Shown: positions 21,270-45,332 of the stretch, one piece after another
Position numbering within the stretch: the first letter of the stretch is position 1
How the letters are laid out: every line of letters begins with the position of its first letter
Origin: Candidatus Eiseniibacteriota bacterium
GTDB lineage: Bacteria > Eisenbacteria > RBG-16-71-46
Direction of reading: 5' to 3'
Assembly: GCA_963725865.1 (NCBI GenBank)
Contig: CAVSAC010000010.1
Span: 704,001 to 768,000 of the forward strand
Length of the DNA stretch: 64,000 bases
Program-made: the position numbers and the translations under genes
The notes under the pieces: generated by a model
Database searches by the model: none
What the model was told of the DNA's origin: nothing
Seen by the model: the letters and a program-made list of their open reading frames with translations, nothing else

Positions 21270-21497
21270 ACCACTGAGTTGAAGGGCAAGGAGTTATAGC
21301 GCAGCTGCAGGCGAAAATCCAGCCGCGAAGGGCCGAGAAGACCCTTGCCTTGCATCCTCCAATGGCGGCCGGAATCAGCCTCTTCTCAAGTGGATGCCGA
21401 GCCAAGGCGGTCGAGCAACACACCGAACTGCTACATTTCGTCCCGCCCGGCAGCTTGGCGCCAGGCTCAGACGCCCTTACCCACGAGGCAGTTCCCC

Positions 21498-26284: not shown

Positions 26285-29200
26285 CTACTGCGCCAACACC
26301 AGCCGCCGCGTCTCCCGTCGATCGGGCGTGTCCAGGCGCAGGAAGTAGAGCCCCGCGGGCGCGTGCCGGCCGGAGTCGTCGGCGCCACGCCACTCGAACG
26401 GGTATTCACCCGCCTCGAGCACACCGTTCTGCAGCATGGCCACCCGGCGACCGGCGATATCGCTCACTGTCAGTCGCACCGATTGGACGTGGGAGACCGC
26501 CAGCGTGAACCGCACCGTGCCGGTCGCGGGATTCGGGAACGGCGCGCGGCTGAACCCGGTCACCCGATGGACGATGGGCGGCGCCGGATCGAGCGGCGGC
26601 ACGTCCAGCACCCGGCCTTGCGTCACCTCGAGCACCCACACGTCGCCGAGCCGGCCGGCGGCGCCGAGGCCGCCGAAGACCACCATGCGCGCACCCGCCT
26701 GGACGGCGGTGTGACGCGAACGAGCCGCCGGCGGACCGCTGGTGGCGACGGGACGGCCCAGCTCGGCGAGCCGGCCAGGCCGTTCGCGCCCGCCACGGTG
26801 GCGATCGCCGCGCTCGGCGTGCCGGCGATCTCACCGCCGTAGACGATCAGATCGTTCGTCGTCGCGCGATACGCGGCGCTCGAGGCGCGCGTCGCGAGTG
26901 GAGTGCCGCTGGTGGTCGGCTGCGACCACACGGGCGTGCCGACGAGTCCGTTCGCGTGCGAGAGCGTCCACAGGTCACCGGTCGGATCCGCGCACGGTGC
27001 CGCTCCGCCCATCAGGATCATCACGTTGTTCGTGGCGTCGTACGCGGCGCGCTGACCCATCCTGGCGGACGGCGGCGTGCCACTGGGGGCCAGCGCGGAC
27101 CACGCCGCGGTCGCGACGTTGTCGGCGTTCAGCATCACCCACGCGTCGTTCGCCGCACTGCCGCAGGTTCCCGGCGCGGCGCTGCCGCCGAACACGGTCA
27201 TCCGGTGAGTGGCCGGGTCGTACACCGCGCTGGCGCCGCTGCGAGCGCCCGGACCGGCGCCGGGCGACAGCACGCTCCACGCGGGCGTGCCCCCGAGACC
27301 GTTGGCGTTCGACAGCACCCACGCGTCGCCCAGCGCGTTGGCGGGCGCGGCGCCGTCATCGCCGCCGAAGACGATCATGCGGTTGCTCGCCGGGTCGTAG
27401 ACCGCGGTGTGGTTCTGACGGGCGGCGGGCGACGTCCCGGTCGGACTGAGCTGCGTCCACGCCGGCGAGCCGCCCTGACCATCGGCGTGGGTCAGCACCC
27501 AGACGTCCGCCAGCATCCCGGCGTTGCCGCGGCCGCCGAACACGATCATGCGGTCGTTGGTCTCGTCGAGCACCGCGGTGTGACCGTCGCGGTCCATCGC
27601 AACGGGCATCGACGGCAGCAGGTGCACCCACGTCATCGACACCGCGACCAGCGACACGCCGGTCGCGCTGTAGCGCGGCTCGAGCGAGATGCCGTTCCCG
27701 AGGTCGAGGCCGGTGAAGTGGAGCAGGCCCGAGACCGAGCCGCCGGTGACCACCTGGAAGCTCTGGCCGACCGCCGGAACGAAACCGTTCGATCAGCGCC
27801 ACCGCCACCGTGCCGTCGAGCGTGACCGCGCCGGTCACCGCGAGCTGGTCGTAGCCCGTGCCCGGCAGTCCGCCGCCGATCTCGATCGCGACCGAGCTGG
27901 TCGGGCTCATCGGGCAGGGCCCGGTCACGTGGAAGACGCCCGGCGAGGCGCCGGGAGCGATCGCGCCCTGGTCGCTGAACGTCACCGCGACGGGATGACG
28001 AGCGTCCCGGCGCCCGCGAGCGTTCCGGTCGGTGCAGTTCGTGAACGCGCCGGCGCTGGGCGTGAGCGAGCGGGTCGCGGCGATCGTGATGGTGCCGGAG
28101 TTGGTGAAGCTCGGCGTGGTGCCCGACTGCGTCACGGCCAGATCGCCGCCGGTGACGTTGATCGAGCCGCTGTTGGTGTGCTGTGCCGAGGCCTTCGCGA
28201 GCGTGGACGCCAGTCCGATGTCCAGCGTGCCCTGGTTGTCGAGCACCAGCCCCAGCGTGCGCGTTCCGCCGCCCGCTCCCGCCAGCGTCGCGATCGAGCG
28301 ACCCGGCGCGTTCGTCAGCGTGCCGGCCGTGACGTTCAGCGTCGCCCCCCAGCTGATCGTCGTGTTGGTCAGCTCGATGGTCCCGTTGTTCGTGAACCCG
28401 TTCGCCACCGTCAGCGTGGCGGTGCCGTTCGAACCATTCCCCGATATCCGCAGCGTGGAGCCCGCGGCGATGGTCAGCGCTCCGTTCTGGTTGCTGGTGC
28501 CGAGCCACACCAGCGTGCCGTTGTTGGTCAGCGACGCGTTCACCGTGCACGCCGAGAGCGAAGGAATGGCGCCGACGCTCACGGTCAGCGCGCCGGGGCC
28601 ATTGATCGTGCAATTCGTGGCGCTGAACCCCAGCGTCGAGAGGGTGAGCGGGACGCCCAGATTCACCGTCGCGTTGCTGGTGGTCCACGCCCCGCCGCCG
28701 GTGATCGTTCCGGCATTCAGGTTGAAGGTCCCATTCGTGACGATGAGCGTGCGCGAGGCCGGCACCGTGACGCTCCCGGTGGTGGTGAAGCTCGGCAGGG
28801 TTCCGCTCTGCGTGATCGTCAGGTCGCCGCCGCTCAGCGTGATCGAGCCGCTGTGGCTGTGCTGCGCCGAGGGCTTCGCGAGCGTGGTCGCCACCCCGAT
28901 GTCCAGCGTGCCCTGGTTGTCGAGCGTCAGCCCCAGCGTGCGCGCCCCCCCGCCCGCTCCCGCCAGCGTCGCGATCGAGCGCCCCGGCGCGTTCGTCAGC
29001 GTGCCGGCCGTGACGTTCAGCGTCGCCCCCCAGCTGAGCGTCGTGTTGGTCAGCTCGATGGTCCCGTTGTTGGTGAAGCCGTTCGCCACCGTCAGCGTGG
29101 CGGTGCCGTTCGAACCATTCCCCGATATCCGCAGCGTGGAGCCCGCGCCGGTGGTCAGCGCGCCGTTCTGGTTGCTGGTGCCGAGCCACACCAGCGTGCC

Positions 29201-30949
29201 GTTGTTGGTCAGCGGCGCATTCACGGTGGTGGCCGCGAACGTCTGCGACTGACCGGCGTCCACCGTCAGCAGCCCGGGGCCGTTGAGGGTCGAGGCCGAG
29301 GGCGTGAACAGGAGCGACGTCAGCGTGAACGGCACCGCGAAGTTCACGGTCACGTTGCTGGTGGTCCACGCCCCGCCGCCGGTGATCGTCCCGGCATTCA
29401 GGTTGAAGGTCCCATTCGTGACGGTGAGCGTGCGCGAGGCCGGCACCGTGATGCTCCCGGTGGTGGTGAAGCTCGGCGTGGTTCCGCTCTGGGTGATCGC
29501 CAGGTCGCCGCCCGTGAGGTTGATCGAGCCGCTGCTGGTGTGCACCGCCGAGGGCTTCGCGAGCGTGGTCGCCACCCCGATGTCCAGCGTGCCCTGGTTG
29601 TCGAGCGTCAGCCCCAGCGTGCGCGCCCCCCCGCCCGCTCCCGCCAGCGTCGCGATCGAGCGCCCCGGCGCGTTCGTCAGCGTGCCGGCCGTGACGTTCA
29701 GCGCCACCCCCCAGCTGAGCGTCGTGTTGGTCAGCTCGATGGTCCCGTTGTTGGTGAAGCCGTTCGCCACCGTCAGCGTGGCGGTGCCGTTCGAACCATT
29801 CCCCGATATCCGCAGCGTGGAGCCCGCGCCGGTGGTCAGCGCGCCGTTCTGGTTGCTGGTGCCGAGCCACACCAGCGTGCCGTTGTTGGTCAGCGGCGCA
29901 TTCACCGTGGTGGCCGCGAACGCCTGCGACTGACCGGCGTCCACCGTCAGCAGCCCGGGGCCGTTGAGGGTCGAGGCCGAGGGCGTGAACAGGAGCGACG
30001 TCAGCGTGAACGGCACCGCGAAGTTCACGGTCACGTTGCTGGTGGTCCACGCCCCGCCGCCGGTGATCGTCCCGGCATTCAGGTTGAAGGTCCCATTCGT
30101 GACGGTGAGCGTGCGCGAGGCCGGCACCGTGATGCTCCCGGTGGTGGTGAAGCTCGGCGTGGTTCCGCTCTGGGTGATCGCCAGGTCGCCGCCCGTGAGG
30201 TTGATCGAGCCGCTGCTGGTGTGCACCGCCGAGGGCTTCGCGAGCGTGGTCGCCACCCCGATGTCCAGCGTGCCCTGGTTGTCGAGCGTCAGCCCCAGCG
30301 TGCGCGCCCCCCCGCCCGCTCCCGCCAGCGTCGCGATCGAGCGCCCCGGCGCGTTCGTCAGCGTGCCGGCCGTGACGTTCAGCGCCACCCCCCAGCTGGC
30401 CACCGTGTTGGTCAGCTCGATGGTCCCGTTGTTCGTGAACCCGTTCGCCACCGTCAGTGTGGCGGTGCCGTTCGTACCGTTTCCGGACACCCGGATCAGC
30501 GACGTGGCGGCGGTCGTCAGTGGGTTCGAGACGGTGGAGCTCCCCAGCGCCGTGAGGCTGCCCGCCATCGCCAGCGAGCCGGCTCCGGCAAGAGTGGCGC
30601 CCGCCAGGCGCAGCGCGCCATTCGCGCCGACCGAGGAGGCCGCGGCGAGCGTGAGCGTGTGATTCCCGAAATCGAGCGTCTGGGTCCCCGATGCCCCGCC
30701 GAGTGCCAGCGAGTTGACCGACGGGTTCACATCGAGCGTCACCGTGTACGTGCCGGCGAGCGCGATCACTGCGTCGTCGGCGGCACCCGGCACCTGCGCG
30801 GGGGACCAGTTGGCCGCGGTGTTCCAGTTGCCGCCGGCGGCGTTGTTCCAGGTGATCGTGGCCGCGCCGGCGACGGACGCCACGCCGAACGACAACACGA
30901 TGAGGGCGGCCAGGGCGAAGGGCGAGAACGAGGGCGGGAAGACGCGCAT
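26285..30949 (-). CDS. Large secreted adhesin-like protein (G/T/N-rich repeats, Kelch-like propeller, FlgD/T9SS-like tail); frameshifted as assembled
   Basis: Signal peptide then ATITWNNAAGGNWNTAANW; 227-aa repeats; GYDQLAVTG; Kelch-like HTAVYD..NRMIVFGG; tail FPNP...GLYFLRL. Frame changes near 28030, 27990, 27790 and 26745. Confidence 0.75.
28100..30500 (-). repeat. Intragenic tandem repeat, 681-bp unit, about 3.5 copies
   Basis: Anchor CGATCGAGCG recurs at 28291, 28972, 29653 and 30334; the central copies are nearly identical at DNA level. Confidence 0.92.
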
Positions 30950-31074: not shown

Positions 31075-32691
31075 TCAGAACCGGCTCAACACCCGCAACT
31101 CGGCCCCCTCGAACGCCTGCACCTCGTAGCACGTCCCGGCCGTGCAGGCGAGGCCGCCGCGGCGACGGCCGAAGAACAGAATCGCCTCGTGGCCGGGGCC
31201 GAGTCGCGCGTCGAGCACCGCCCCCACCAGGTGGATCGGCCGGTTTCCGGGTACCGCCCGCGAGAGCTCGAGGGGGTCGGTGGTGCGCGTCCACGTCACC
31301 GCGGCGCTGCCGAAGTCGGCGCGCGCCACGGTGCCGGCCAGGTAGAGATCCTCGAACGCCTCGGGAGCGCCCGCGGTCTCGCGTCGCGCGGTCTGGCGCT
31401 GCATGTCCAGCGTGCCCGACCACGCCCGCAGCACGCGCACCGTCGCGGCGATCCCGACGGTGCGGCGATCGGAGATCGAGATCAACTCGTCCCAGCTGCG
31501 GTCGTAGAACGCGGTCGCCTCCCAGCGCTCGGCCCGCCGCGGCGCCGCGCGCCACTCCACGAATCGCTCCTCGAAGCGCCGGGCGCCGGCGCCGTCCGAG
31601 CGGCTCCAGTTGGTGGTGACCGCGGCCCAGTCGGACGGCGTGTAGGACCCCTCGAACTGGAACCCCTGCTCGCGGTCGGCGACCAGCACGTGAGTGCTGC
31701 GATTGAGCAGGACCTGCGCGTGCTCGCGCACCAGCGACGGGGGATCGTTCACGCCCAGCCGGAACCGGGAGTAGTCCTTCCACTCGACCGCAAACGTGAC
31801 CGGACCGGTGATCAGGTTGGCGCTCGTATAGAGGGCGTGCGGTGTGCGCTCCCGCGTGCTGAAGCTCCACCAGTCCCCGAACGAGCGATCGGCCTGCGCG
31901 TACTCGGCGTAGAGCGGCAGCGCCACCGACCGGATGCCCACCAGGCGCATCGCATCCAGGTCCACGAATCCGGTGCCCAGCTCCTGCTGGCCGAGCCCCG
32001 CCTTCATACGCAGGTAGGCCGCGCCCACGCGCGCGCCGCGCGCCACCATGGTCGCGAGCTGCGCGCCGTTTACCTGTCCCGCGTGGCGCACGAACCCCAG
32101 CTCCTCGCCCGCGAGCGAGGACTCGCCGCCGTTGGGCGCCCCGCTCAGGAGCGTCGCGCTCACGGGTCCAAGCGTGGCCTCGGCGAGCACGCCGTCGACG
32201 TCGCGCGAGGGTCCGAAGCGCGAACGCGGGAAGCGCTGGTCGAGCACCACGCCGTTCAGCTCGAAGGCGCGCTGGATGAGGCCGCGGCCGAGGATGCTGT
32301 AGAAGTTCCCGACCCGCACGCGGTAGCGATCGTCGTTCCAGTCGAGGAAGCGCTCGGTGAGGCCCTCGTAGGGGTACTGGTCCTCGCTGTTGCGATCGGT
32401 CTCGTAGCGCAGACCGGCGATCCCCCCGGGAAACGCGTACATCAGGTTCACCTGGTCGTACGCGTCCAGCCGGTTCGCAGGCCCCCGGCCGGCGTAGGAC
32501 TTTGGATAGTTCCCGGACTGGCCCTCGAACAGGTTGGTGCCGGAGAGCTGGGCGCGGGCGAGCGCGGGCGCCAGCGACAGCAGGCACACGGCGCCGATGA
32601 AGGCCCGCGCGCCGACCCGCGCGGCGCCGGTCGCGAGCGCGGCGCGGCGCCCGATGCGCACCCCGCGCCGGCCCCGCTCAGCGCGTGCCAT
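31075..32691 (-). CDS. Outer-membrane beta-barrel protein, DUF6029-like, with C-terminal CxxxxC
   Basis: Signal peptide; RVGNFYSILGRGLI, EWKDY and NDPPSL motifs; amphipathic strands; ends GRRRGGLACTAGTCYEV...LSRF with terminal Phe. Confidence 0.75.
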   Translation of the reverse strand: MARAERGRRGVRIGRRAALATGAARVGARAFIGAVCLLSLAPALARAQLSGTNLFEGQSGNYPKSYAGRGPANRLDAYDQVNLMYAFPGGIAGLRYETDRNSEDQYPYEGLTERFLDWNDDRYRVRVGNFYSILGRGLIQRAFELNGVVLDQRFPRSRFGPSRDVDGVLAEATLGPVSATLLSGAPNGGESSLAGEELGFVRHAGQVNGAQLATMVARGARVGAAYLRMKAGLGQQELGTGFVDLDAMRLVGIRSVALPLYAEYAQADRSFGDWWSFSTRERTPHALYTSANLITGPVTFAVEWKDYSRFRLGVNDPPSLVREHAQVLLNRSTHVLVADREQGFQFEGSYTPSDWAAVTTNWSRSDGAGARRFEERFVEWRAAPRRAERWEATAFYDRSWDELISISDRRTVGIAATVRVLRAWSGTLDMQRQTARRETAGAPEAFEDLYLAGTVARADFGSAAVTWTRTTDPLELSRAVPGNRPIHLVGAVLDARLGPGHEAILFFGRRRGGLACTAGTCYEVQAFEGAELRVLSRF

Positions 32692-33262
32692 GCGCCCCCG
32701 CCGTGTCGACGGCCGCGCGACCGTCGGGCCGCGCGCTCGAGTCGGCGCCGCTTCCCGTCGCGAGCAGCGTCACGATCCGCTGCTCCAGCTCCTCGCCCTC
32801 GCCGGGGCGGTACCCCAGGCGCACCGATGCGATGCTGCCGTCGCGGTCGATCAGCACGGTGGTGGGCATCGCCACCACCTGATAGAGGTGGCGCAACCGC
32901 TCGTCCTGATCGATGACGATCGGATAGGTGAGGCCGAGACGTGCCGCGAGCGGACGCACCCTGGTGTAGTTGCGCGGTCCGTCGACTGAGATCCCGATCA
33001 CCGTGAACCCGCGCGGGCCGTACGCCCTGTGCCAGCGCTCGAGCTCGGGCGCCGCATCCAGACAGGGCTTGCACCAGGTGGCCCAGAAGTCGAGCAGGAC
33101 GGGGCCGCGGCGCAGCAGATCGTCGAGCTCCAGCGTCCGTCCGAGGACGTCGTTCACCTTGAAGCGCGGCGCCGGGGCAGACCGAGCGGGGAACGCCGCC
33201 CGGGCGACGCCGGCGCCGACGCACGCAGCGATCGTCAGCGCGAGGATCGCGCGGGTCAGCAT
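32678..33262 (-). CDS. TlpA-family periplasmic thiol-disulfide oxidoreductase
   Basis: Signal peptide; LLDFWATWCKPC; cis-Pro motif AMPTTVLIDRDG; overlaps the start of the downstream gene. Confidence 0.92.
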   Translation of the reverse strand: MLTRAILALTIAACVGAGVARAAFPARSAPAPRFKVNDVLGRTLELDDLLRRGPVLLDFWATWCKPCLDAAPELERWHRAYGPRGFTVIGISVDGPRNYTRVRPLAARLGLTYPIVIDQDERLRHLYQVVAMPTTVLIDRDGSIASVRLGYRPGEGEELEQRIVTLLATGSGADSSARPDGRAAVDTAGAHGTR

Positions 33263-33282: not shown

Positions 33283-34137
33283 TCACCGCAGGATCACCAC
33301 GCGCAGGGAGCACCGCACCCCACCCACGTCGGAGCGGAGCAGATAGAGCCCGGGTCGCACCCGCGCGCCCTGCTCGTCGCGGCCGTCCCACGTGAGGCGC
33401 TTGGTCCCCGGCGGGATCTCGCCCTGCCACGGCGTGGCGATCCGCCGCCCGGCCAGGTCGTGCGCCGTCACCGTCGCGGGCCGAGCCGTGCGCTCCGGAT
33501 TCGACAGCTCGAGCGTGGTCTCGCCATGGAACGGGTTGGGGGCCGCGCGCAGCGAGTAACCGCTGGCTCCGGGTCCGGAGCCGACATCGAGGGGCGACGT
33601 CACCAGCGAGTCGATGCAGCCGCGTAGCTCGCCCACGTGATAGCGATTCCCGTAAGGCCACAGCAGGTAGGCGCTGTATCGCACGATCCCCTGCTTGCTG
33701 ATCACCGCGTAGCTGTCGCGGTCGCCGTAGGGGATGAACAGGTTCTCGTTCCCGGAGCCAAGGGCGCCGTTCAGAAGCAGCGGGAACGGAACGCCGGTCG
33801 CGGTCCTGAACGAGGTGAGGCTGGGAGCGTTTCCATTGAACAGGTCCGGCCCGAGCGCCTGCACCTGCCCGGGATAGTTCGTCTCGTAGTACTGCCAGAT
33901 CTCGCTGACGACCGACGGACCGTCGGCGATGCACTCGGGTCACGAGTACCCGAGCAGGAACAGGAAGACGACCTTGCCACGGTACTGCGAAAGCGTCTGC
34001 GAATTGCCCTCGAGGTCGACCTTGTGGAAGTCGGGCGCCACGTCCCCGGGATGCAGGACCGCGCGGGCCGGCAGCGGCGAAACGAGACATGCGAGCAGCA
34101 GGAGCGCCGCCCACGGCGGGACGGTTCGTCGGACCAT
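33283..34137 (-). CDS. Secreted thioredoxin-fold (redoxin) selenoprotein, UxxC, with FlgD/T9SS-like tail
   Basis: ORFs 33940-34137 and 33283-33864 are in one frame joined by TGA 33942-33940: GDVAPDF...YRGKVVFLFLLGYS-U-PEC. GAGG RBS, signal peptide, SECIS-like hairpin. Confidence 0.85.
33912..33926 (-). promoter_or_regulatory. Putative bacterial SECIS hairpin
   Basis: CCGAC-GGTCC-GTCGG begins after a 13-nt spacer 3' of the UGA; GU in the apical loop. Confidence 0.65.
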
Positions 34138-34327: not shown

Positions 34328-36769
34328 TCAGCGCACGACCATGAGCTTGCGCGTCGCGACCGCGGCCCCGCTGGTCAGGTGGGCGAAGTAGAGCCCCGCC
34401 TTGAGCGACGCGGTCGGCAGCGTGACCGCGTGCGGGCCGGCGGTCATCGGCGCGCGGTCGAGCAGCGTCGTGACGCGGCGACCGGCGGCATCGAACACCG
34501 CCAGCGTCACCGGACCGGTGGCCGGCAACGCGAACTGCAGCTCGGTGCGGCCGCGTGCCGGGTTCGGGTAGTTGCTCAGCTGCAACCGGTGGGCGATCGA
34601 GCCCAGCGGCGCGTCCACGGTGCCCGGCACCGAGAGGAACGCCGCCATGCCCTGGGTCCACAGCCCGTGCGAGGTGCTGAAGTTGCCGCCGACGTACAAC
34701 GTGGAGGCGGTCCGCTCCATGCAGTAGACGGCGCTGTTCTGGTTGGGATCCCAGGTGAAGTCCGCGGCGCCCGAGCCGTCGATCGACGCCAGGTAATTGC
34801 GGGTCTGGCCGCCGACGAACGTGAACGCGCCGCCCGCGTAGACGGTGGAGCCGCTCACCTTCAGCACGTACACGGTGCTGTTCGCGTTCGGATCCCACGC
34901 CGTGGCGAGGCCGGTGGTGGCATCGAGCGCCGCGATGCGGTTGCGCGTCTGACCGCCGACGGAGGTGAACACACCGCCGGCGTAGACGGTGTTCCCGTCG
35001 CCCGACAAGTCGACGCTGTACACGACGTTATTCGCGTTCGGATTCCAGGTCGACGCCAGTCCGCTGCTGACGTCGAGCGCCGCGAGCCCGCTGCGCACCT
35101 GTCCGCCGATGTTGTTGAACGAACCACCCGCGTAGAGCGTCGATCCGCGCTTCGCGAGCGTGAGCACCTCGTTGTTCGAGTTCGGGTTCCAAGTGGTCGC
35201 GGCGCTGTTCGCGAGGTTCAACTCGGCGATCCGGTTGCGGGCCTGTCCGCCAATGTTCGTGAAGAGCCCGCCCACGTAGAGCGTGCTGCCGTTCAGCAGC
35301 ATCGTGTCGATCAGGTTGTTCGCGTTCGGATTCCACGGCGAGGCGAGCCCGGTGGTGGCGTCGAGCGCCGCGATTCGGTTGCGCACCTGCCCGCCGATGT
35401 TCGTGAACGGTCCACCCGCGTACACGGTGTTCCCATCGACCACGATGTCGTTGACCTGGTTGTTCGAGTTGGGATCCCACTCGGTGACGGCGCCGGTCAC
35501 GGCGTTCAACGCGGCGATGCGATTGCGCACCCGCGCGCAGATGATCGTGAACGCGCCGCCCGCGTAGAGCGTGGTGCCCTCGCGCGCGAGCGCGTAGGTG
35601 AAGTCGTTCGCGAGCGGGTTCCACGTGGTCGCAGCGCCGGTCGTCACGTCCAGCCCGGCGCAGTACGCGCGCGCCTGCGCCCCGATGTTCGTGAAGCCGC
35701 CGCCGGCGTAGAGCGTGGTGCCGTCCAGCACCAGCGCGTAGACCGCGCCGTTGGAATTCGGGTTCCAGGTCGACGCCAGTCCGGTCGCGGGATCCAGCGA
35801 AGCGATGCGATTGCGCACCTGGCCGCCGATGCTCGTGAACAGCCCGCCCACGAACACGGTGCCGCTGTTGAGCACGATCGCGCGGACCTGGTTGTTGGCG
35901 TTGGGATCCCACGCCGTCGCTGCGCCGGTCGCCAGGTCGATCTCGGCGATCCGGTTGCGCGTCTGCCCGCCGATGTTCGTGAACGCGCCGCCCACGTACA
36001 GCGTGCCGCCGTTGAGCGCCAGGGCGTACACGTCGAGGTTCGAGTTCGGATTCCACGCGGTGGCGGCACCGGTGCCGACGTCGACCGCCGCGATGCGCGG
36101 GCGGTTCTGGCCGCCGATCGTGGTGAAGACCCCTCCGACGTAAAGCGTCCCGCCGTCCAGAGCCAGTGCGTCCACGTTGCTGTTCGCGTTCGGGTTCCAC
36201 GCGGTGGCGAGCCCGGTGGCAGCGTCGATCGCCGCGATGTGATTGCGCGTCTGCCCGCCGACGAACGTGAATGCACCGCCGACGTAGACCGTGCTCCCGC
36301 TGACCGCGAGGGCGTAGACCGCGGAGTTCGCGTTGGGCTTCCAGGGCGCGATGGTGCCGTCGGCGAGCACGTGGACGAGATTCGTGCAGGCGACGCTGCC
36401 GATCGTGGTGAAGGTCCCCCCCAGGAACCAGCCGCCGAACCCATCGGGCGCGACCGCGTACAGCGTGCCGTTGACGCGCGGGAACGGCGACCGCGGCAGG
36501 AAGGTGGCCAGGTCGATCGCCGCGCCTCCGCCGGTGGTCGGGTATACCTGGGTGAACGTCCCCCCGATGTAGATGGTGTTGCCGACCCGCGTGAACGCGG
36601 TCACGGCGTTGTTCGCCATCCAGAGGGTGGAGTCCACCTGCTGCGCGCGCGCGCCATCCGGCCGTGCGCCGAGCCACGCGAGCGCGACGAGGCCGGCGGC
36701 GAGCGCGAGGAGCGGGGCGCGACGGGCGCGGCCACGACGGTGCGATGCGGTCGGAGAGAGTGCTGCCAT
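34328..36769 (-). CDS. Secreted beta-propeller repeat protein with T9SS-like tail
   Basis: Signal peptide; about 12 repeats of about 52 aa (WNPNAN..V.ALA..G.TLY.GG.FT.IGGQ.RNRIAALD..TG); tail NYPNP...GLYFAHL. Confidence 0.88.
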   Translation of the reverse strand: MAALSPTASHRRGRARRAPLLALAAGLVALAWLGARPDGARAQQVDSTLWMANNAVTAFTRVGNTIYIGGTFTQVYPTTGGGAAIDLATFLPRSPFPRVNGTLYAVAPDGFGGWFLGGTFTTIGSVACTNLVHVLADGTIAPWKPNANSAVYALAVSGSTVYVGGAFTFVGGQTRNHIAAIDAATGLATAWNPNANSNVDALALDGGTLYVGGVFTTIGGQNRPRIAAVDVGTGAATAWNPNSNLDVYALALNGGTLYVGGAFTNIGGQTRNRIAEIDLATGAATAWDPNANNQVRAIVLNSGTVFVGGLFTSIGGQVRNRIASLDPATGLASTWNPNSNGAVYALVLDGTTLYAGGGFTNIGAQARAYCAGLDVTTGAATTWNPLANDFTYALAREGTTLYAGGAFTIICARVRNRIAALNAVTGAVTEWDPNSNNQVNDIVVDGNTVYAGGPFTNIGGQVRNRIAALDATTGLASPWNPNANNLIDTMLLNGSTLYVGGLFTNIGGQARNRIAELNLANSAATTWNPNSNNEVLTLAKRGSTLYAGGSFNNIGGQVRSGLAALDVSSGLASTWNPNANNVVYSVDLSGDGNTVYAGGVFTSVGGQTRNRIAALDATTGLATAWDPNANSTVYVLKVSGSTVYAGGAFTFVGGQTRNYLASIDGSGAADFTWDPNQNSAVYCMERTASTLYVGGNFSTSHGLWTQGMAAFLSVPGTVDAPLGSIAHRLQLSNYPNPARGRTELQFALPATGPVTLAVFDAAGRRVTTLLDRAPMTAGPHAVTLPTASLKAGLYFAHLTSGAAVATRKLMVVR

Positions 36770-37062
36770 CGGAGCCTCCGCTCGAGGTCGGTGTGGGGTG
36801 TGCGGCCCGCGCGGCTTCCCGCCCGCGGCGCCACCCGGCCCGGAACGGGGCGGGAGCGCCGGAAATGGAAGCGACTCATCCCCCATTGCGCAGGAGCGAG
36901 CCCGCAGCCGTCATCGAAGCTCGAACGGGCGTCCGCGCGGGGCTGCGCGATCGGGGCGCGATTCCCTCGCAAGTCCGTGTCGGTCGTGGCCGATAACGTG
37001 GATGGACCTCCGGCAACGCCTGCGGGAAGTCCACCCAATAGCCCCGGACGAGCGCATACGCC

Positions 37063-39310: not shown

Positions 39311-39532
39311 CCGTCCCGGGCGGGGCGTCCGCAGCGCGTCCCGCGCTGGCAGCGCTCCTCGCGTCGTTCGGCCGCATCAAACGGAGCGACCACCGCGCGC
39401 GACCGGTGCGAGCCCCGGGCCGGCGGCCGCATCCAACCGCGAACGATTCGCTTCGGCGCCTCCCCGTCGAGTGGGCAACCCTCCACGCGACCGTCCGAGC
39501 GGCAGGAAGTCCCGACGGCCCAAGGGGTGTCC

Positions 39533-40627
39533 ATGTCCGATCCGCAGCCACCACAACTCGTCGCGCTCGCCACCGCGGTGCCGCCCCACGTCGTCCGCCA
39601 GGACGACGTGTGCGGGCTCGCCGCCCAGTTGTTCTCGAGTGCGATCGCCGCGGACCCGCGCCTCGTCCAGGTGTTCGCTCACACGCAGATCGAGCAGCGC
39701 TCGACGTGCATGCCGCTCGAGTGGTACGCGTCGCCGCACTCGTTCGCGGAGCGCAACGACCTCTACCTGCAGCACGCGCTGGCGCTCGCGTGCGACGCGA
39801 CGCAGCGCGTGCTCGAGCGCGCGCGGCTCGCGCCCACGGATGTCGACCACGTGGTGTTCGTCTCGTCCACCGGGCTCGCGACTCCGAGCATGGACGCGCG
39901 GCTCGCGAATCGACTCAGGTTCCGCAGCGACGTGCGCCGCACGCCGATCTGGGGCCTCGGCTGCGCGGGCGGCGCGGCGGGGCTGGCGCGCGCGCGCGAT
40001 CTGGCGCTCGCGGATCCCCACGCGCGCGTGCTGCTGGTCGCGCTTGAGCTGTGCAGCCTCACGTTCCAGCACGGCGATCTCTCCAAGCGCAACCTGGTCG
40101 CGACCTCGCTGTTCGCCGACGGTGCGGCGGCCGCGCTGGTGGTCGGCGCGGAGGTGGACCGCGCGGGTTCCAACGGTCACCGCCCGCTCGAGCTGCGGGC
40201 CTCCCAGAGCACGCTGTGGAACGACACCGAGGACGTCATGGGCTGGACGGTCGACGGCGACGGCCTGCACGTGGTGTTCTCGCGCGACATCCCCACCATC
40301 GTGCGCGAGAACGTGCGGCCGAGCCTGATCTCGTTCCTCGAGCGCCAGGAGCTGACGCTCGAGTCCCTGCACCACCTGGTCGCACACCCGGGCGGCACCA
40401 AGGTGCTGATCGCGTACGGCGAATCGCTGGGGCTGCCGCCGGAGGCGTTCCGTCACGCGCGCGAGGTGCTGCGCGTGCACGGCAACATGTCCTCGCCGTC
40501 CTGCCTGTTCGTGCTCGAGCGCGTGCTCGACGCCGGCGAGATCGGCGCCGGACAGAACGCGCTGGTCGCCGCGCTGGGACCGGGCTTCGCGGCCGAGTAC
40601 GTGCTGATGCGCGGAGCCACCGCTTGA
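39533..40627 (+). CDS. Type III polyketide synthase (BpsA/SrsA-like)
   Basis: Catalytic triad motifs WGLGCAGG, AHPGG and GNMSS; LFADGA; ALGPGF. Confidence 0.93.
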   Translation: MSDPQPPQLVALATAVPPHVVRQDDVCGLAAQLFSSAIAADPRLVQVFAHTQIEQRSTCMPLEWYASPHSFAERNDLYLQHALALACDATQRVLERARLAPTDVDHVVFVSSTGLATPSMDARLANRLRFRSDVRRTPIWGLGCAGGAAGLARARDLALADPHARVLLVALELCSLTFQHGDLSKRNLVATSLFADGAAAALVVGAEVDRAGSNGHRPLELRASQSTLWNDTEDVMGWTVDGDGLHVVFSRDIPTIVRENVRPSLISFLERQELTLESLHHLVAHPGGTKVLIAYGESLGLPPEAFRHAREVLRVHGNMSSPSCLFVLERVLDAGEIGAGQNALVAALGPGFAAEYVLMRGATA

Positions 40628-41172
40628 GCGTCACGCCCCTGTCGCCGGGGCTGGTCGTCGGACTGGCCGTGTTCCTGGTGCTGCTCGGCGTGCAGCGCGT
40701 CGGCGAGCTGGTGCTGTCGGCCCGCAACGTCGCGCGCCTGAAGGCGCTCGGCGCGCGCGAATACGGCGCCGGGCACTTCCCCCTGATCGTGCTGGTGCAC
40801 GTGCTGTTCCCGCTCGGCCTGATCGCCGAGGTGGTGGGGCTGGGCGCGCGGCCGTGGCCGCTCTGGCCGCTGTGGCTGGTGCCGCTGCTGGCGGCCCAGG
40901 TGCTGCGCTACTCCGCGGTGCTGGCGCTCGACTTCCACTGGACCGTGAGCGTGTGGGTGGTGCCGGGATTGCCCCCGCTGCGCAGCGGTCCCTACCGGCG
41001 GATGCGTCACCCCAATTACCTGGCGGTGGTCATCGAGCTGTTGGTCACGCCCCTCATGTTCGGAGCATGGCGGACCGCCGTGGTGGTCTCGGCGCTGGAT
41101 CTGCTCGCACTCGCGATCCGCATCCGGGTCGAGGAGCGCGCGCTGCGCGAGGCGAGCGGCGGCGCGCGCTAG
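40624..41172 (+). CDS. Isoprenylcysteine carboxyl methyltransferase family (BpsB/SrsB-like)
   Basis: TTGA overlap with the PKS stop; GPYRRMRHPNY and RIRVEERAL. Confidence 0.9.
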   Translation: MSVTPLSPGLVVGLAVFLVLLGVQRVGELVLSARNVARLKALGAREYGAGHFPLIVLVHVLFPLGLIAEVVGLGARPWPLWPLWLVPLLAAQVLRYSAVLALDFHWTVSVWVVPGLPPLRSGPYRRMRHPNYLAVVIELLVTPLMFGAWRTAVVVSALDLLALAIRIRVEERALREASGGAR

Positions 41173-42031: not shown

Positions 42032-43467
42032 AGCGCGCTCTGCTCGTCCTCGTCCTCGGTCTCGCGGGGCTCGCGCTGCGGGCGCCGCTCGCGTCCGCCG
42101 CCGCGTTGTCCACCGCGTTCACCTATCAGGGGAGCCTCGACCACGCGGGGGTGCCCACCAGCGTGACCTGCGCGTTCTCGTTCAAGCTGTTCGACGCGCT
42201 CAATGGCGGCAATCAGATCGGCGGCACGCTCACGCCCGCGGTCACGCTGATGGAGAACGGGCAGTTCAGCGTGCCGCTCGACTTCGGCGTCGGCGTGTTC
42301 GACGGCAACCAGCGCTGGCTCGAGATCGCGGTGCAGTGTCCCGGCGATCCCTCGTTCTCGACGCTGGCGCCACGCCAGTCGATCACCGCCACGCCCTACG
42401 CGCTGTACGCGCTCACCGGGCCGGGCGCGGGCGGCGGCTTCGTGCTGCCGTTCGCGGGCGCGGTCACGAGCCCGAGCCAGGACGCGCTGCGGATCCAGAA
42501 CAACGCCGCCAGTACCACGGTCTCCGCGATCCATGGCATCTCGGCGGCCACCACCACCGGCGGCACCGGTGCGGTTTTCGGCGAGGCCACCGGGACCTCG
42601 GGAGCGACGCTCGGCGTCTACGGGCTTGCGACCGCGAGCCCGACCGGCACCGGCGTGGTGGGAAAGGCGGGCGCGACCGGCGCCTACTTCGAGTCCTTCA
42701 GCACGACGATCGGTCCCGACTACGCGGGCGTCTACGGCGTCGCCAACGCGCACCCTGGCGTCAAAGGCATCTCGACGCTCGATGCCGGCGTGCTCGGCAG
42801 CGGGTACATCGGCGTATGGGGTCACGGATCGAACAGCTCCGGCGTGTACGGCGAGAGCGCGCCCGGCTTTCCCGGGGTGCACGGCGTCGGCACCACCGGG
42901 GACGGCACCTGGGGGATCTCGTCCAGCGGGCACGGCGTCTTCGGCCAGACCAGCTCGGCGGCGAAGGCGGGGGGCTACTTCACCAACACCGCGGGCGGCC
43001 CGGCGCTGATCGCCAACGGTACCGCGCAGGTGAAGACGCTCCAGATCCTCGGCGCCGACCTCGCCGAGAGCTTCCCGGTCCGCGCGGAAGGCGTCGAGCC
43101 GGGCACCGTGCTGGCGCTGACCGGCGATGAGCAGGGCACGCTCGCGGTGTGCGACGCGCCCTACAGTCCGCGCGTGGCGGGCGTGGCGAGCGGTGCCAAC
43201 GGCCTGCCGGCCGGCGTGGTGCTCGAGGGTCGGGAGTTCGAACGCGCCGGCAAGGTGGCGGTGGCGATGTCGGGGCGCGTGTGGGTGAAATGCGACGCCA
43301 CGAGCGGCGCCATCGGCGTCGGCGACCTGCTCACCTCCGCGCCGCGCGCGGGTCACGCGATGCGCGCTGCGGATCCCGCGCGTGCCACCGGCGCGATCCT
43401 CGGCAAGGCGATGACCTCGCTCGCGCACGGCACCGGCCTGGTGCTGGTGCTGGTGAGCCTCCAGTGA
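42028..43467 (+). CDS. Secreted fibre-like protein with GVxG repeats and tailspike chaperone-like C-terminus
   Basis: ATGA coupling; AFTYQG...LDFG...RWLEI...PRQ...PYALYA; GV(Y/W/F)G repeats; GADLAESF...GRVWVK...GDLLT...GHAM...LGKA. Confidence 0.75.
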   Translation: MKRALLVLVLGLAGLALRAPLASAAALSTAFTYQGSLDHAGVPTSVTCAFSFKLFDALNGGNQIGGTLTPAVTLMENGQFSVPLDFGVGVFDGNQRWLEIAVQCPGDPSFSTLAPRQSITATPYALYALTGPGAGGGFVLPFAGAVTSPSQDALRIQNNAASTTVSAIHGISAATTTGGTGAVFGEATGTSGATLGVYGLATASPTGTGVVGKAGATGAYFESFSTTIGPDYAGVYGVANAHPGVKGISTLDAGVLGSGYIGVWGHGSNSSGVYGESAPGFPGVHGVGTTGDGTWGISSSGHGVFGQTSSAAKAGGYFTNTAGGPALIANGTAQVKTLQILGADLAESFPVRAEGVEPGTVLALTGDEQGTLAVCDAPYSPRVAGVASGANGLPAGVVLEGREFERAGKVAVAMSGRVWVKCDATSGAIGVGDLLTSAPRAGHAMRAADPARATGAILGKAMTSLAHGTGLVLVLVSLQ

Positions 43468-45332
43468 GCGCGCGCGCGCAGTCCGTCGCGCGGACAAGCG
43501 CGGCGGCGTTCGCGCTGATGCTGTCGGCGCAGGTCGCCGGCGCCGTCGGGGTGGCATCCCCGGCGGCCGCGCGTCCGTCGCCCGCGCCCGCGCGCACCGC
43601 GGCGGTCGCCGCGCTCACGTCCGCGCTGGTCGCCTCGTCCGGCGGCGCGGCGGCGGCGGAGCTGCGCACCTCGTGGTCGCCGTCGGGAGCGCTCACGTAC
43701 CTGGGCGCCCCGGGCGGCACGGCGTTCGCGGCTCCGGAGCGGCACCCCGGCCAGCCGGAGGTCGCCGCGCGCGCGTTCGTGCTCGCGCATCGCGACCTGT
43801 TCGGGCTCGGCGGGGCCGGCGCCGACCTGCGCGCCGGGCGCGTGAAGGACCGCGGCGCGCGCCGGTTCACGCGTCTCGACCAGACTCATTTCGACGCGAA
43901 GGTGTTCGGCGCCGAGGCGGTGGTGCAGCAGGATCCCCAGGACGACGTCCAAGCGGTGATCGCCACGCTCGCGGTCGAGGACGGCGATCTGCCGACCGAC
44001 GCCGCGGCCGCCCGGCCGGGGCTCGATGCCACCGCGGCGGCCACGCGCGCCCGCACCCGCGCGGCGGAGCGCGGGGCCTCGCCGTCGGTGAGCATCGGCG
44101 CGCCGGAGCTGGTGTGGTTCGTGCCGCGGCTGATCGGCGATCCGGGGCCCACGCGTCTGGCCTGGGAGGTCGAGGTGCACGACCCCGACTCGCCCGCGCT
44201 GCACGCGCGCTGGTTCCTCGACGCGGCGAACGGCGAGCTGGTGCGCGAGCTGTCGCTGGCGGAGGACGCCCGGGTGCGCCGCATCTACGACATGGCCAGC
44301 GACACCAGCCAGCACACGCCGCCGGTGGCGCGCGGCGAGGGCGGACCCGCGACCGGGATCGCGCAGGTCGACCTGGCGTACCAGTACCTGGGCCTCACCT
44401 ACGACTTCTACGCCGCGCAGAACGGCCGCGACGGCATGAACGGCGCCGGACTTTCGATGGACGCGTGGGTGCGGGTGTGCACCCGGGTGCCGAATTACCA
44501 GTGCCCGTGGCAGAACGCGAGCTGGAACGGCTCCCTCCTGCAGTTCGGCGACGGCTGGGTGGCCGACGACATCGTGGCGCACGAGTTCACCCACGGCGTC
44601 ACGCAGTACGAGTCGAACCTGGTGTACGCGAACGAATCGGGGGCGATCAACGAGGCGCTGTCCGACATCTTCGGCGAGTTCGTCGATCTCGACGACGGCG
44701 TCGGCAACGACGCGGCGGGCGTCCGCTGGCAGGTCGGGGAGGACGGCATCGCCGGCACGCTGCGCTCGATGAGCAACCCGCCGCAGTTCGGCGATCCCGA
44801 CCGGCGCAACAGCTTCTTCTACTACACCGGGACCGACGACGACGGCGGCGTGCACACCAACAGCGGCGTCGCGAACAAGCTGTGCTTCCTGCTCACCGAC
44901 GGCCAGGCGTTCAATGGCCAGGTGGTGAGCGGCATGGGCTGGGCCGCCGTCGAGCAGTTGTTCTACGAGGCGCAGACCAACCTGCTCACCTCGACCGCCG
45001 GCTGGCTGGCGCTCGGCACCGCGCTCGAGCAGTCGGCCATCAACCTCGGCTGGAGCACCGCCGACCAGAACAACCTCTACCACGCCATCCTCGCGGTCGA
45101 GATCGCAGGCAACGCCGACATCGTGTGGGTGGACCTCACCAGCGGCTGCGCCCCGACCGGGCACTCGGTCTGCGGCGCGATCACCGGCCCCTACCACACC
45201 ATCGGGCAGGCGATGACCCTCACCCGCGTGGGCTCGACGGTGATCGTGCGCCCGGGCACCTATCACGCGACGGCGCTCTCGAAGGCCATGACCATCACCG
45301 CCGAGAGCGGCGGGGTGACCGTGGTCCCGTGA
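43464..45332 (+). CDS. M4 (thermolysin-family) metallopeptidase
   Basis: Propeptide; NASW, AHEFTHGV, GAINEALSD and GGVHTNSG. Confidence 0.92.
   Translation: MSARAQSVARTSAAAFALMLSAQVAGAVGVASPAAARPSPAPARTAAVAALTSALVASSGGAAAAELRTSWSPSGALTYLGAPGGTAFAAPERHPGQPEVAARAFVLAHRDLFGLGGAGADLRAGRVKDRGARRFTRLDQTHFDAKVFGAEAVVQQDPQDDVQAVIATLAVEDGDLPTDAAAARPGLDATAAATRARTRAAERGASPSVSIGAPELVWFVPRLIGDPGPTRLAWEVEVHDPDSPALHARWFLDAANGELVRELSLAEDARVRRIYDMASDTSQHTPPVARGEGGPATGIAQVDLAYQYLGLTYDFYAAQNGRDGMNGAGLSMDAWVRVCTRVPNYQCPWQNASWNGSLLQFGDGWVADDIVAHEFTHGVTQYESNLVYANESGAINEALSDIFGEFVDLDDGVGNDAAGVRWQVGEDGIAGTLRSMSNPPQFGDPDRRNSFFYYTGTDDDGGVHTNSGVANKLCFLLTDGQAFNGQVVSGMGWAAVEQLFYEAQTNLLTSTAGWLALGTALEQSAINLGWSTADQNNLYHAILAVEIAGNADIVWVDLTSGCAPTGHSVCGAITGPYHTIGQAMTLTRVGSTVIVRPGTYHATALSKAMTITAESGGVTVVP

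Follow-up and report, generated by a model that had tools for sequence, protein, structure and literature searches.

Prokaryotic selenoproteins comprise more than 110 families, most of which are thiol oxidoreductases, according to the accessible part of a 2026 review (PMC13188914). Table 1 of the same source lists a group of "Prx-like thiol:disulfide oxidoreductase" selenoproteins, which belong to Pfam family PF00578, carry a UxxC or UxxU motif (U, selenocysteine, Sec) and are predicted with high confidence. A gene of this kind is described here in a 64,000-nucleotide stretch of DNA, termed the window, from Candidatus Eiseniibacteriota bacterium (assembly GCA_963725865.1, contig CAVSAC010000010.1, positions 704,001 to 768,000). 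The minus-strand interval 34137..33283 of the window is read as a single gene encoding a 284-residue selenoprotein with Sec at UGA codon 66, with an estimated probability of about 0.9. This estimate refers to the recoding, and in that sense the gene is taken to encode a genuine, mis-annotated selenoprotein. Similar to the Prx-like selenoproteins, the encoded protein belongs to the AhpC-TSA family, displays a UxxC motif with Sec at the first position and is followed, directly after the UGA, by a candidate Sec insertion sequence (SECIS) element, while its Cys homologs are outnumbered or matched by Sec forms. It differs by presenting a predicted signal peptide, a probable C-terminal type A domain of the type IX secretion system (T9SS) and an operon that includes a TlpA-like and a DUF6029 gene, as well as by having turned up in a single class of the phylum searched. 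This comparison was made by description (Pfam family and motif). Table 1 further names a "thiol-disulfide isomerase-like" selenoprotein family.

The gene (33283..34137, minus strand) extends from an ATG at 34137-34135, preceded by a Shine-Dalgarno-like GAGG tetramer at 34146-34143, through 284 codons to a terminal TGA at 33285-33283. Its frame is interrupted solely by the TGA at 33942-33940, and read-through of this codon yields the sequence ...LFLLGYS-U-PEC-IADGPSV..., comprising U66 and C69. Inspection of the minus-strand translation thus bears out the preliminary description of this locus, made from the letters alone, which placed the TGA at the first position of a CxxC motif (GYS-U-PEC) in a frame that stays open on both sides over 284 residues. 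The UGA codon of U66 (33940..33942) opens the U-P-E-C motif at the N-terminal end of the helix extending from residues 67 to 87, while the codon of C69, the partner (resolving) Cys of the UxxC motif (33931..33933), corresponds to a near-invariant column in the 29-sequence family alignment, with N replacing C69 in one database homolog (P0033). The open reading frame (ORF) listing with genetic code table 11 yields two pieces, 34137..33940 (65 residues) and 33864..33283 (193 residues). The expectation that the gene would be annotated as two fragments is therefore correct for the listing but not for the protein database, where the only entry for the gene is the 193-residue C-terminal fragment (P0002). 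Redoxin homologs align end to end with the 284-residue protein. The contigs of two public sequencing runs span 33872-34130 and 33877-34027 with zero differing letters, and at 33940-33942, where a check of the bases had been advised, they read TGA and not TGC or TGT. Since both cover the TGA without a differing letter, the codon is not an assembly slip, with the qualification that the two runs belong to one study, which is possibly the source of the assembly itself.

The most direct evidence for recoding is the pairing of TGA with Cys codons across homologs. A set of 41 genomes, consisting of 40 relatives and the organism's own, was searched in six frames, and the homologs were relocated by tblastn and then translated. 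Full-length homologs, 21 in number, were identified in 18 of the 41 genomes; 13 contain one internal TGA and eight contain none. All 13 TGAs fall at one column, within the motif G[YW]x-U-xxC, and this column pairs with Cys only, never with Trp or Gly. The eight Cys homologs have TGC or TGT at the Sec column and display the motif GY[SN]-C-[PG][FV]-C, so that the alignment put forward earlier as a test places TGA and Cys codons at exactly the same position. No other stop or frameshift was observed in any of the 21 genes. The terminal stop is TGA in 19 of the 21, the window gene included; TGA therefore still acts as a stop, and the internal TGA is read by context. Conservation at the protein level extends upstream of the TGA, where G31 and F37 do not vary and P35, K39, L42, L49 and V56 reach 90% or more. 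A phylum-wide search of 206 genomes, restricted to the redoxin domain, revealed the gene in 52 genomes, all of one class, with 66 matches of which 47 contain exactly one TGA and 19 contain none. The counts 13, 47 and 66 take in one Sec form (locus L030) from a genome flagged as unpublished (G026).

Protein databases present a different picture of the same family. Close relatives in a database of 5.8 billion proteins number 56, and the 13 that are full length (278-317 residues) all have Cys at the Sec column. The remaining 43 are fragments of 166-215 residues; the six fragments that were read start just past the CxxC position or farther downstream, for example with M-A/T/D/N-DGPS..., and the database fragments probably represent truncated Sec forms. 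They bear names such as "hypothetical", "FlgD immunoglobulin-like domain containing protein" and "flagellar hook capping protein FlgD". The source labels of relatives are Candidatus Eisenbacteria (two), Candidatus Limnocylindria (one) and Planctomycetes (one).

The genome assembly (G000; 5.23 Mb, 19 contigs, 98.9% complete) encodes the machinery for Sec insertion, and all four components named earlier as worth looking for, selA, selB, selD and tRNA-Sec, score above their cut-offs. The tRNA-Sec gene matches Rfam RF01852 with 69.3 bits (cut-off of 47), and the same tRNA is identified by ARAGORN as tRNA-SeC with anticodon tca. The genes selA (460 bits) and selD (358 bits), as well as the winged-helix domain of SelB (70 bits, within a 713-residue frame), exceed the curated cut-offs. 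The selD gene (G000:C10:237537-238692; loci L001 and L011) is located ~140 nt from the tRNA-Sec gene and contains its own in-frame TGA, in the context CAG-U-ASK, followed by a hairpin with the loop GGC. Because of this in-frame TGA and hairpin, selD is, on its sequence, itself a selenoprotein gene, so that Sec decoding of UGA would already be in use for at least one gene of this organism. A SelA match was found in 37 of the 41 related genomes, the exceptions being G010 (94% complete), G023 (84%), G037 (53%) and G040 (86%).

Immediately after the UGA, the predicted transcript can adopt a hairpin (33911..33927, minus strand) with a 7-bp stem, formed by G33927-G33921 and C33917-U33911, and a GUC loop (33920-33918) located 19 nt from the UGA; the loop reads GGUCC if the closing G-C pair is opened. 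The GU-loop hairpin reported in the preliminary description at 33912-33926, starting 13 nt after the UGA, constitutes the 6-bp core of this stem, and the bacterial SECIS geometry attributed to it is also recovered. In the bacterial SECIS model, as given in the accessible part of PMC13188914 (Fig. 2 legend), a stem of 4-16 bp carries an apical loop of 3-9 nt whose first or second position is a G, in most cases with G or U after it; the loop lies 16-37 nt beyond the UGA, and the minimum free energy is -7.5 kcal/mol or lower. With a GUC loop, 7 bp, 19 nt and -10.0 kcal/mol, the window hairpin lies within the model on every count. The DNA of the window is G+C-rich, and taken alone the hairpin is unremarkable there. 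The 66 nt following the UGA fold at -20.2 kcal/mol, compared with a shuffle mean of -22.3 kcal/mol (z = 0.72), and 153 of 200 shuffles fold at least as well, observations that by themselves lend no support to a functional element at this site. Since single-sequence folding is no better than that of shuffles, the significance of the hairpin rests on comparative data.

These data separate Sec from Cys forms. The stretch starting at the UGA aligns gap-free across the 13 Sec forms, and the hairpin forms in all of them, with energies ranging from -7.6 to -13.6 kcal/mol. Standard pairs occupy 92.3% of the cells of an 8-pair helix in the Sec forms; pair 15/33 alternates between GC (seven) and CG (four), and at pair 18/30 a single sequence, that of G026, has GC in place of CG. 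None of 500 column shuffles matched the observed pairing or covariation, and sliding the helix partner by 1-3 columns reduced pairing to 21-59%. Imposed on the eight Cys forms, the same helix reaches 60.9% pairing, a level attained by 445 of 500 shuffles. As the hairpin overlaps the D-G-P-S-V codons, which are conserved as protein too, codon choice provides a sharper test. GGT is the rarest Gly codon in the 21 genes, accounting for 8.3% of 567 Gly codons outside the loop, but it is the loop codon in 13 of 13 Sec forms, compared with two of six Gly codons in Cys forms. Similarly, the loop codon CCG is present in 13 of 13 Sec forms and in four of eight Cys forms. The Cys forms of G032 and G024 retain the D-G-P-S-V peptide spelled with other codons and have lost the hairpin. 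The only Cys form with a perfect hairpin, that of G031 (L039, TGT), is identical in this region to its Sec sister G028 (L038). Taken together, codon choice and covariation support the view that the hairpin acts as a bacterial SECIS element, conserved only in Sec forms.

The selenoprotein is predicted to comprise three modules. Residues 1-26 (34060..34137, minus strand) resemble a signal peptide when read by eye, with MVRR at the N-terminus, a hydrophobic core and ARA preceding V27; the N-terminus displays low predicted local distance difference test (pLDDT) values and a lone helix at residues 8-17 in the structural model, and homologs present similar N-termini. Residues 27-182 (33592..34059, minus strand) constitute a ResA/TlpA-like domain of thioredoxin fold (redoxin domain), identified by Pfam, AlphaFold2, Foldseek and sequence matches in the PDB. 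Pfam AhpC-TSA matches residues 30-154 with 34.5 bits (cut-off of 26) and Pfam Redoxin scores 28.7 bits (cut-off of 26.6); the protein stays below the cut-off of every NCBIfam model. The AlphaFold2 model, calculated from the 29-sequence alignment, has a mean pLDDT of 90.7 and displays a thioredoxin-type domain at residues 30-180, in which U66 lies between the strand 56-62 and the helix 67-87. The linker that follows is disordered (pLDDT below 50 for residues 183-190) and leads to a seven-stranded β-sandwich extending from residues 195 to 282. Structural similarity search with Foldseek against the PDB ranked 2ls5, a Bacteroides "putative protein disulfide isomerase", at the top, followed by Bacillus ResA chains with template-modelling (TM) scores of 0.83-0.86 per target length, and the peroxiredoxins AhpE, BCP and PrxQ lower, with TM scores of 0.68-0.76. 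Sequence matches of the redoxin domain in the PDB include 2ls5, 3kcm and ResA, and U66 is aligned with the first Cys of WCGVC in 2ls5 and of WCGPC in 4k9z. The family consensus leading into the active site is LFLLGYxC.

Among described proteins, close relatives are found in those of the ResA/TlpA/CcmG type (e.g. Bacillus subtilis ResA; PDB codes 1su9 and 2h19). The redoxin domain shares with them the thioredoxin fold, the extra N-terminal hairpin, the central insert and a motif of the CxxC type at the start of helix 1, together with an extracytoplasmic location as implied by the signal peptide. It differs in having Sec in place of the first Cys, G-Y-x-U in place of W-C, apparently no conserved cis-proline (cis-Pro), and an added sorting domain. 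A further point of comparison is the NF041054 family, which also uses an active-site Sec on a TlpA-like fold. In that family, however, Sec is found in a UGC motif, in contrast with U-x-x-C here, and the selenoprotein has no NF041054 match at E ≤ 0.01. Two observations argue against a straightforward ResA-like assignment. The NCBIfam ResA model gives the protein 26.8 bits against a cut-off of 170, and the place of the cis-Pro, which hhalign puts at D141 and hmmsearch at R140 (an uncertainty of one residue), falls in the sequence G-D-R-D-S-Y, which contains no Pro. Conservation of D141 across the family is 90% or higher, and in some homologs a Pro stands two positions before the cis-Pro place. 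Given this Pro-less site, the redoxin chemistry may differ from that of ResA.

Reduction or isomerisation of disulfides in envelope or surface proteins is the first choice for the function of the selenoprotein, held at about even odds. The strongest competitor, which we consider unlikely without regarding it as negligible, is that the same selenoprotein does not reduce or isomerise protein disulfides but removes peroxides, as a thiol (selenol) peroxidase at the cell surface or in the periplasm; U66 would then be peroxidatic, and C69 would resolve. AhpC/TSA is the top-scoring Pfam family, the Cys homologs are named "peroxiredoxin" by JGI, the PrxU model is touched by three of the 29 family members, and the cis-Pro typical of disulfide oxidoreductases is apparently not conserved. 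Sec resists over-oxidation, a property that would suit a peroxidase. AhpE, BCP and PrxQ are also good structural matches, but the ResA chains fit better, and the active-site motif is of the ResA/TlpA CxxC type. NCBIfam peroxiredoxin scores 18.5 bits, far from its cut-off of 260. Membership of the peroxiredoxins proper was rejected on the motif, since PxxxTxxC is absent and U66 is preceded by F-L-F-L-L-G-Y-S, so that position -3 is G and position -7 is not Pro.

The remaining alternatives concern the recoding itself and are considerably weaker. The TGA may be a true stop in a split or decaying gene, of which the 65-residue peptide, the downstream fragment or neither would be made. Gene callers treat the TGA in this way, the database holds the 193-residue P0002, and the window hairpin folds no better than shuffles. 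This possibility is nevertheless very improbable, since TGA occupies the active-site Cys column in 13 of 21 homologs, a single TGA recurs in 47 of the 66 phylum-wide matches, both flanks of the TGA are conserved as protein with no other stop or frameshift in the 21 genes, the hairpin is conserved at synonymous sites in TGA forms only, and the full Sec machinery is present. Read-through of the UGA as an amino acid other than Sec, whether by near-cognate tRNAs (for Trp or Cys) or by reassignment of TGA, is less probable still: nothing specific favours it beyond the frame being open on both sides, reassignment is at odds with the 19 of 21 genes that terminate in TGA, the column pairs with Cys and never with Trp or Gly, and tRNA-Sec, SelA, SelB and SelD occur together with a SECIS-type hairpin. 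An error for TGC or TGT, which might be suspected since at least one frameshift seems to be present at another site of the assembly (in a homolog of SprA, see below), is the least credible of all, given that the contigs of the two runs agree (one study, possibly the source) and that the same TGA occurs in 12 more homolog genes, from 10 other genomes, and in 46 more phylum-wide matches.

Some observations temper the case for the Sec-encoding gene. The homolog genomes are kin, so that a count like 13 of 13 suggests more independent events than there are. The public runs that match the stretch are of DNA or unknown type, with shares of 0.11-0.12, and none is listed as RNA. Finally, G010 and G023 carry Sec forms and present no SelA match, which weighs mildly on the negative side unless these assemblies are incomplete.

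The third module of the selenoprotein, a C-terminal β-sandwich spanning residues ~193-284 (33286..33561, minus strand) after the flexible linker 183-190, probably corresponds to a T9SS type A sorting domain (Pfam: FlgD_ig). FlgD_ig (PF13860) matches residues 203-266 with 31.8 bits (cut-off of 27), and the tail of the window protein matches the C-terminal domain of the T9SS sortase PorU (E value of 6.3e-5). TIGR04183 (Por_Secre_tail) is matched by 28 of the 29 aligned family members, with a best E value of 1.2e-7, and the family profile matches the solved C-terminal domains of PorU (PDB code 6za2) and of the Porphyromonas cargo PG93 (PDB code 5m11), as well as the FlgD Ig-like domain. The FlgD/T9SS-like tail of the preliminary description is thereby supported, and these profile matches favour a T9SS sorting signal of type A over anything flagellar. 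Identity with the hook-capping protein FlgD was considered and rejected: only the Ig-like domain matches, NCBIfam FlgD scores 23 bits against a cut-off of 230, and the neighbouring genes, which encode redox and outer-membrane proteins, weaken this possibility further. The selenoprotein shares with T9SS type A cargo (TIGR04183/PF18962; PorU 6za2, PG93 5m11) a ~90-residue C-terminal β-sandwich following a flexible linker. The difference is that no selenoprotein cargo of the T9SS was found by full-text searches of the literature or in the accessible part of the 2026 review (PMC13188914).

The tail of the selenoprotein finds 147 matches in the organism's own 5.2-Mb genome, which implies that proteins sorted to the surface or secreted are very numerous in this organism. 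PorU is present with 442 bits (cut-off of 420), and a homolog of SprA (G000:C10:1010913-1015257; locus L052, 1414-5758) scores above its cut-off, with one TGA counted inside. Export of the selenoprotein may proceed via the T9SS, as suggested by its sorting domain and these components. The T9SS has been characterised in Bacteroidota, and this organism, judging from the source labels of the homologs, appears to lie outside that group. Against export by this route stand three findings. The tail of the window protein itself has no TIGR04183 match at E ≤ 0.01; a PorV-like gene beside PorU reaches 106 bits against a cut-off of 250; and the SprA match is split over two overlapping minus-strand frames, switching near G000:C10:1014480-1014490. 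The split reflects either an assembly indel or a broken translocon gene, and bears on whether the T9SS works in this organism. Directly upstream of the selenoprotein gene, an 852-residue DUF5122 β-propeller protein (34328-36886, minus strand) matches TIGR04183 itself; it is not conserved beside homologs elsewhere.

Downstream of the selenoprotein gene, two genes on the same strand complete a conserved arrangement. The first, separated by 20 nt, encodes a 194-residue TlpA/ResA-like protein (32678..33262, minus strand) with a WCKPC motif and a possible lipobox (IAAC). It scores 82.8 bits with Pfam AhpC-TSA, 95.1 bits with NCBIfam ResA (under the cut-off of 170) and 47.7 bits with NF041054. The second, overlapping the first by 14 nt, encodes a 538-residue DUF6029 protein (31075..32691, minus strand; PF19494, 46 bits) that ends in F and is predicted to form an outer-membrane β-barrel. 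DUF6029 proteins have been likened, via HHpred, to Wzi-type outer-membrane barrels of 18 strands in the accessible part of PMC9603273. The TlpA-like homolog adjoins the redoxin gene in 18 of 18 loci that hold one, and DUF6029 was found in 17 of 19 loci searched, the other two loci ending too early to tell. The TlpA-like neighbour is proposed, from its motif and position, as the redox partner of the selenoprotein. Of 24 large ORFs between 19 and 48 kb of the window, none was identified as a CcdA/DsbD gene, and one DsbD_TM gene is located elsewhere in the genome. Just downstream of the DUF6029 gene, at ~27356-30850 (minus strand), a very large secreted protein contains at least three near-identical repeats of ~190 residues (…GNGTNGTATLTVANGFTNNGTIELTN…) and has no meaningful Pfam match.

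On these computational observations the following scheme may be proposed. The hairpin would recruit SelB and Sec-tRNA(Sec), leading to insertion of Sec at the UGA of codon 66, while translation would end at the terminal UGA, which lacks such a hairpin. The preprotein would cross the inner membrane via the Sec translocon and fold in the periplasm, and its tail would hand it to the T9SS for display at the cell surface or release. The U66 selenolate would attack a disulfide or peroxide of the substrate, and C69 would resolve the adduct as a selenenylsulfide. The CxxC motif of the TlpA-like neighbour would then re-reduce the enzyme, with electrons supplied via a CcdA/DsbD-type membrane protein encoded elsewhere. 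The DUF6029 barrel would belong to the same module. The topology speaks against this arrangement, as a periplasmic TlpA-like donor cannot reach an enzyme released outside the cell; for this reason, either the enzyme would act before or without export, or the DUF6029 barrel would form part of some further arrangement.

The Sec/Cys state of the family appears to have changed repeatedly. A maximum-likelihood tree was calculated from the 21 sequences after X had been substituted for the residue at the Sec/Cys column; it is unrooted, and the direction of change is unreadable from it. Parsimony requires at least six Sec/Cys changes on this tree, at least two of which are forced by well-supported branches, and Sec and Cys forms do not cluster on it beyond random expectation (a value as low arose in 185 of 500 shuffles). 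The Sec form of G028 and the Cys form of G031, from the same genus, are sisters with support of 100/99 and branch lengths of ~0.05, which looks like a very recent switch. The intact hairpin in the Cys form suggests that, in this pair, the change was from Sec to Cys. Loss of the Sec machinery was rejected as the cause of the Cys forms, since SelA is present in all seven genomes with Cys forms only. Tandem redoxin paralogs were also observed, as Sec+Sec pairs in G016:C84 and G017:C1, as three Sec copies in G162:C12, and as Sec+Cys pairs in G006:C201, G111:C224 and G118:C79.

Other genes of the window encode unrelated functions. An 868-residue protein (21345-23951, plus strand) contains the archaeo-eukaryotic primase domain of TOTE conflict systems (318.8 bits) fused to ResIII/DEAD helicase domains, an architecture suggestive of defence or of a conflict system. 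A type III polyketide synthase with chalcone/stilbene synthase domains, followed by an ICMT-family methyltransferase (39527-41172, plus strand), may constitute an alkylresorcinol-type lipid cluster. A thermolysin-like M4 metallopeptidase with Peptidase_M4 and M4_C domains is encoded at 43149-45332 (plus strand).

Searches of the full-text literature retrieved no relevant paper linking selenoproteins with Eisenbacteria, with type IX secretion or with a secreted C-terminal sorting domain, and none joining selenoprotein, SECIS, thiol disulfide oxidoreductase and metagenomes. The accessible part of the text of the 2026 review (PMC13188914) makes no mention of secretion, T9SS, sorting or export. 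The deep-Sep paper, in its accessible part, describes nine new families, which in principle could include the present one. Selenoproteins of the UxxC redoxin type are of a known kind, while the secretion tag and the operon appear to be new. The preliminary description had called the combination of a signal peptide and a FlgD/T9SS-like tail unusual for a selenoprotein, which holds for the secretion tag but not for the redoxin, UxxC selenoproteins having long been known. The gene is a secretion-tagged variant of these known selenoproteins, widespread in one uncultured class, and entails no new principle. A more far-reaching interpretation can be advanced only tentatively, at clearly less than even odds: that this is the first selenoprotein family to be cargo of the T9SS, placing a Sec redox centre at the surface or outside the cell in an uncultured high-GC class, within a fixed three-gene module whose redoxin lacks the cis-Pro, with a possible trans-envelope relay of electrons to an extracellular selenol and a Sec/Cys state that flips repeatedly.

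The main interest of the family resides in the repair of its annotation, in a possible first selenoprotein cargo of the T9SS and in a natural set for comparing Sec with Cys. A dedicated NCBIfam-type model with a Sec flag would repair the annotation of the family in 52 of 206 phylum genomes. The paired natural Sec and Cys versions, some of them in tandem in one genome, constitute a clean system in which to study the advantage of Sec over Cys. If export is true, a selenol at the surface of the cell or outside it would widen the known sites of selenium chemistry.

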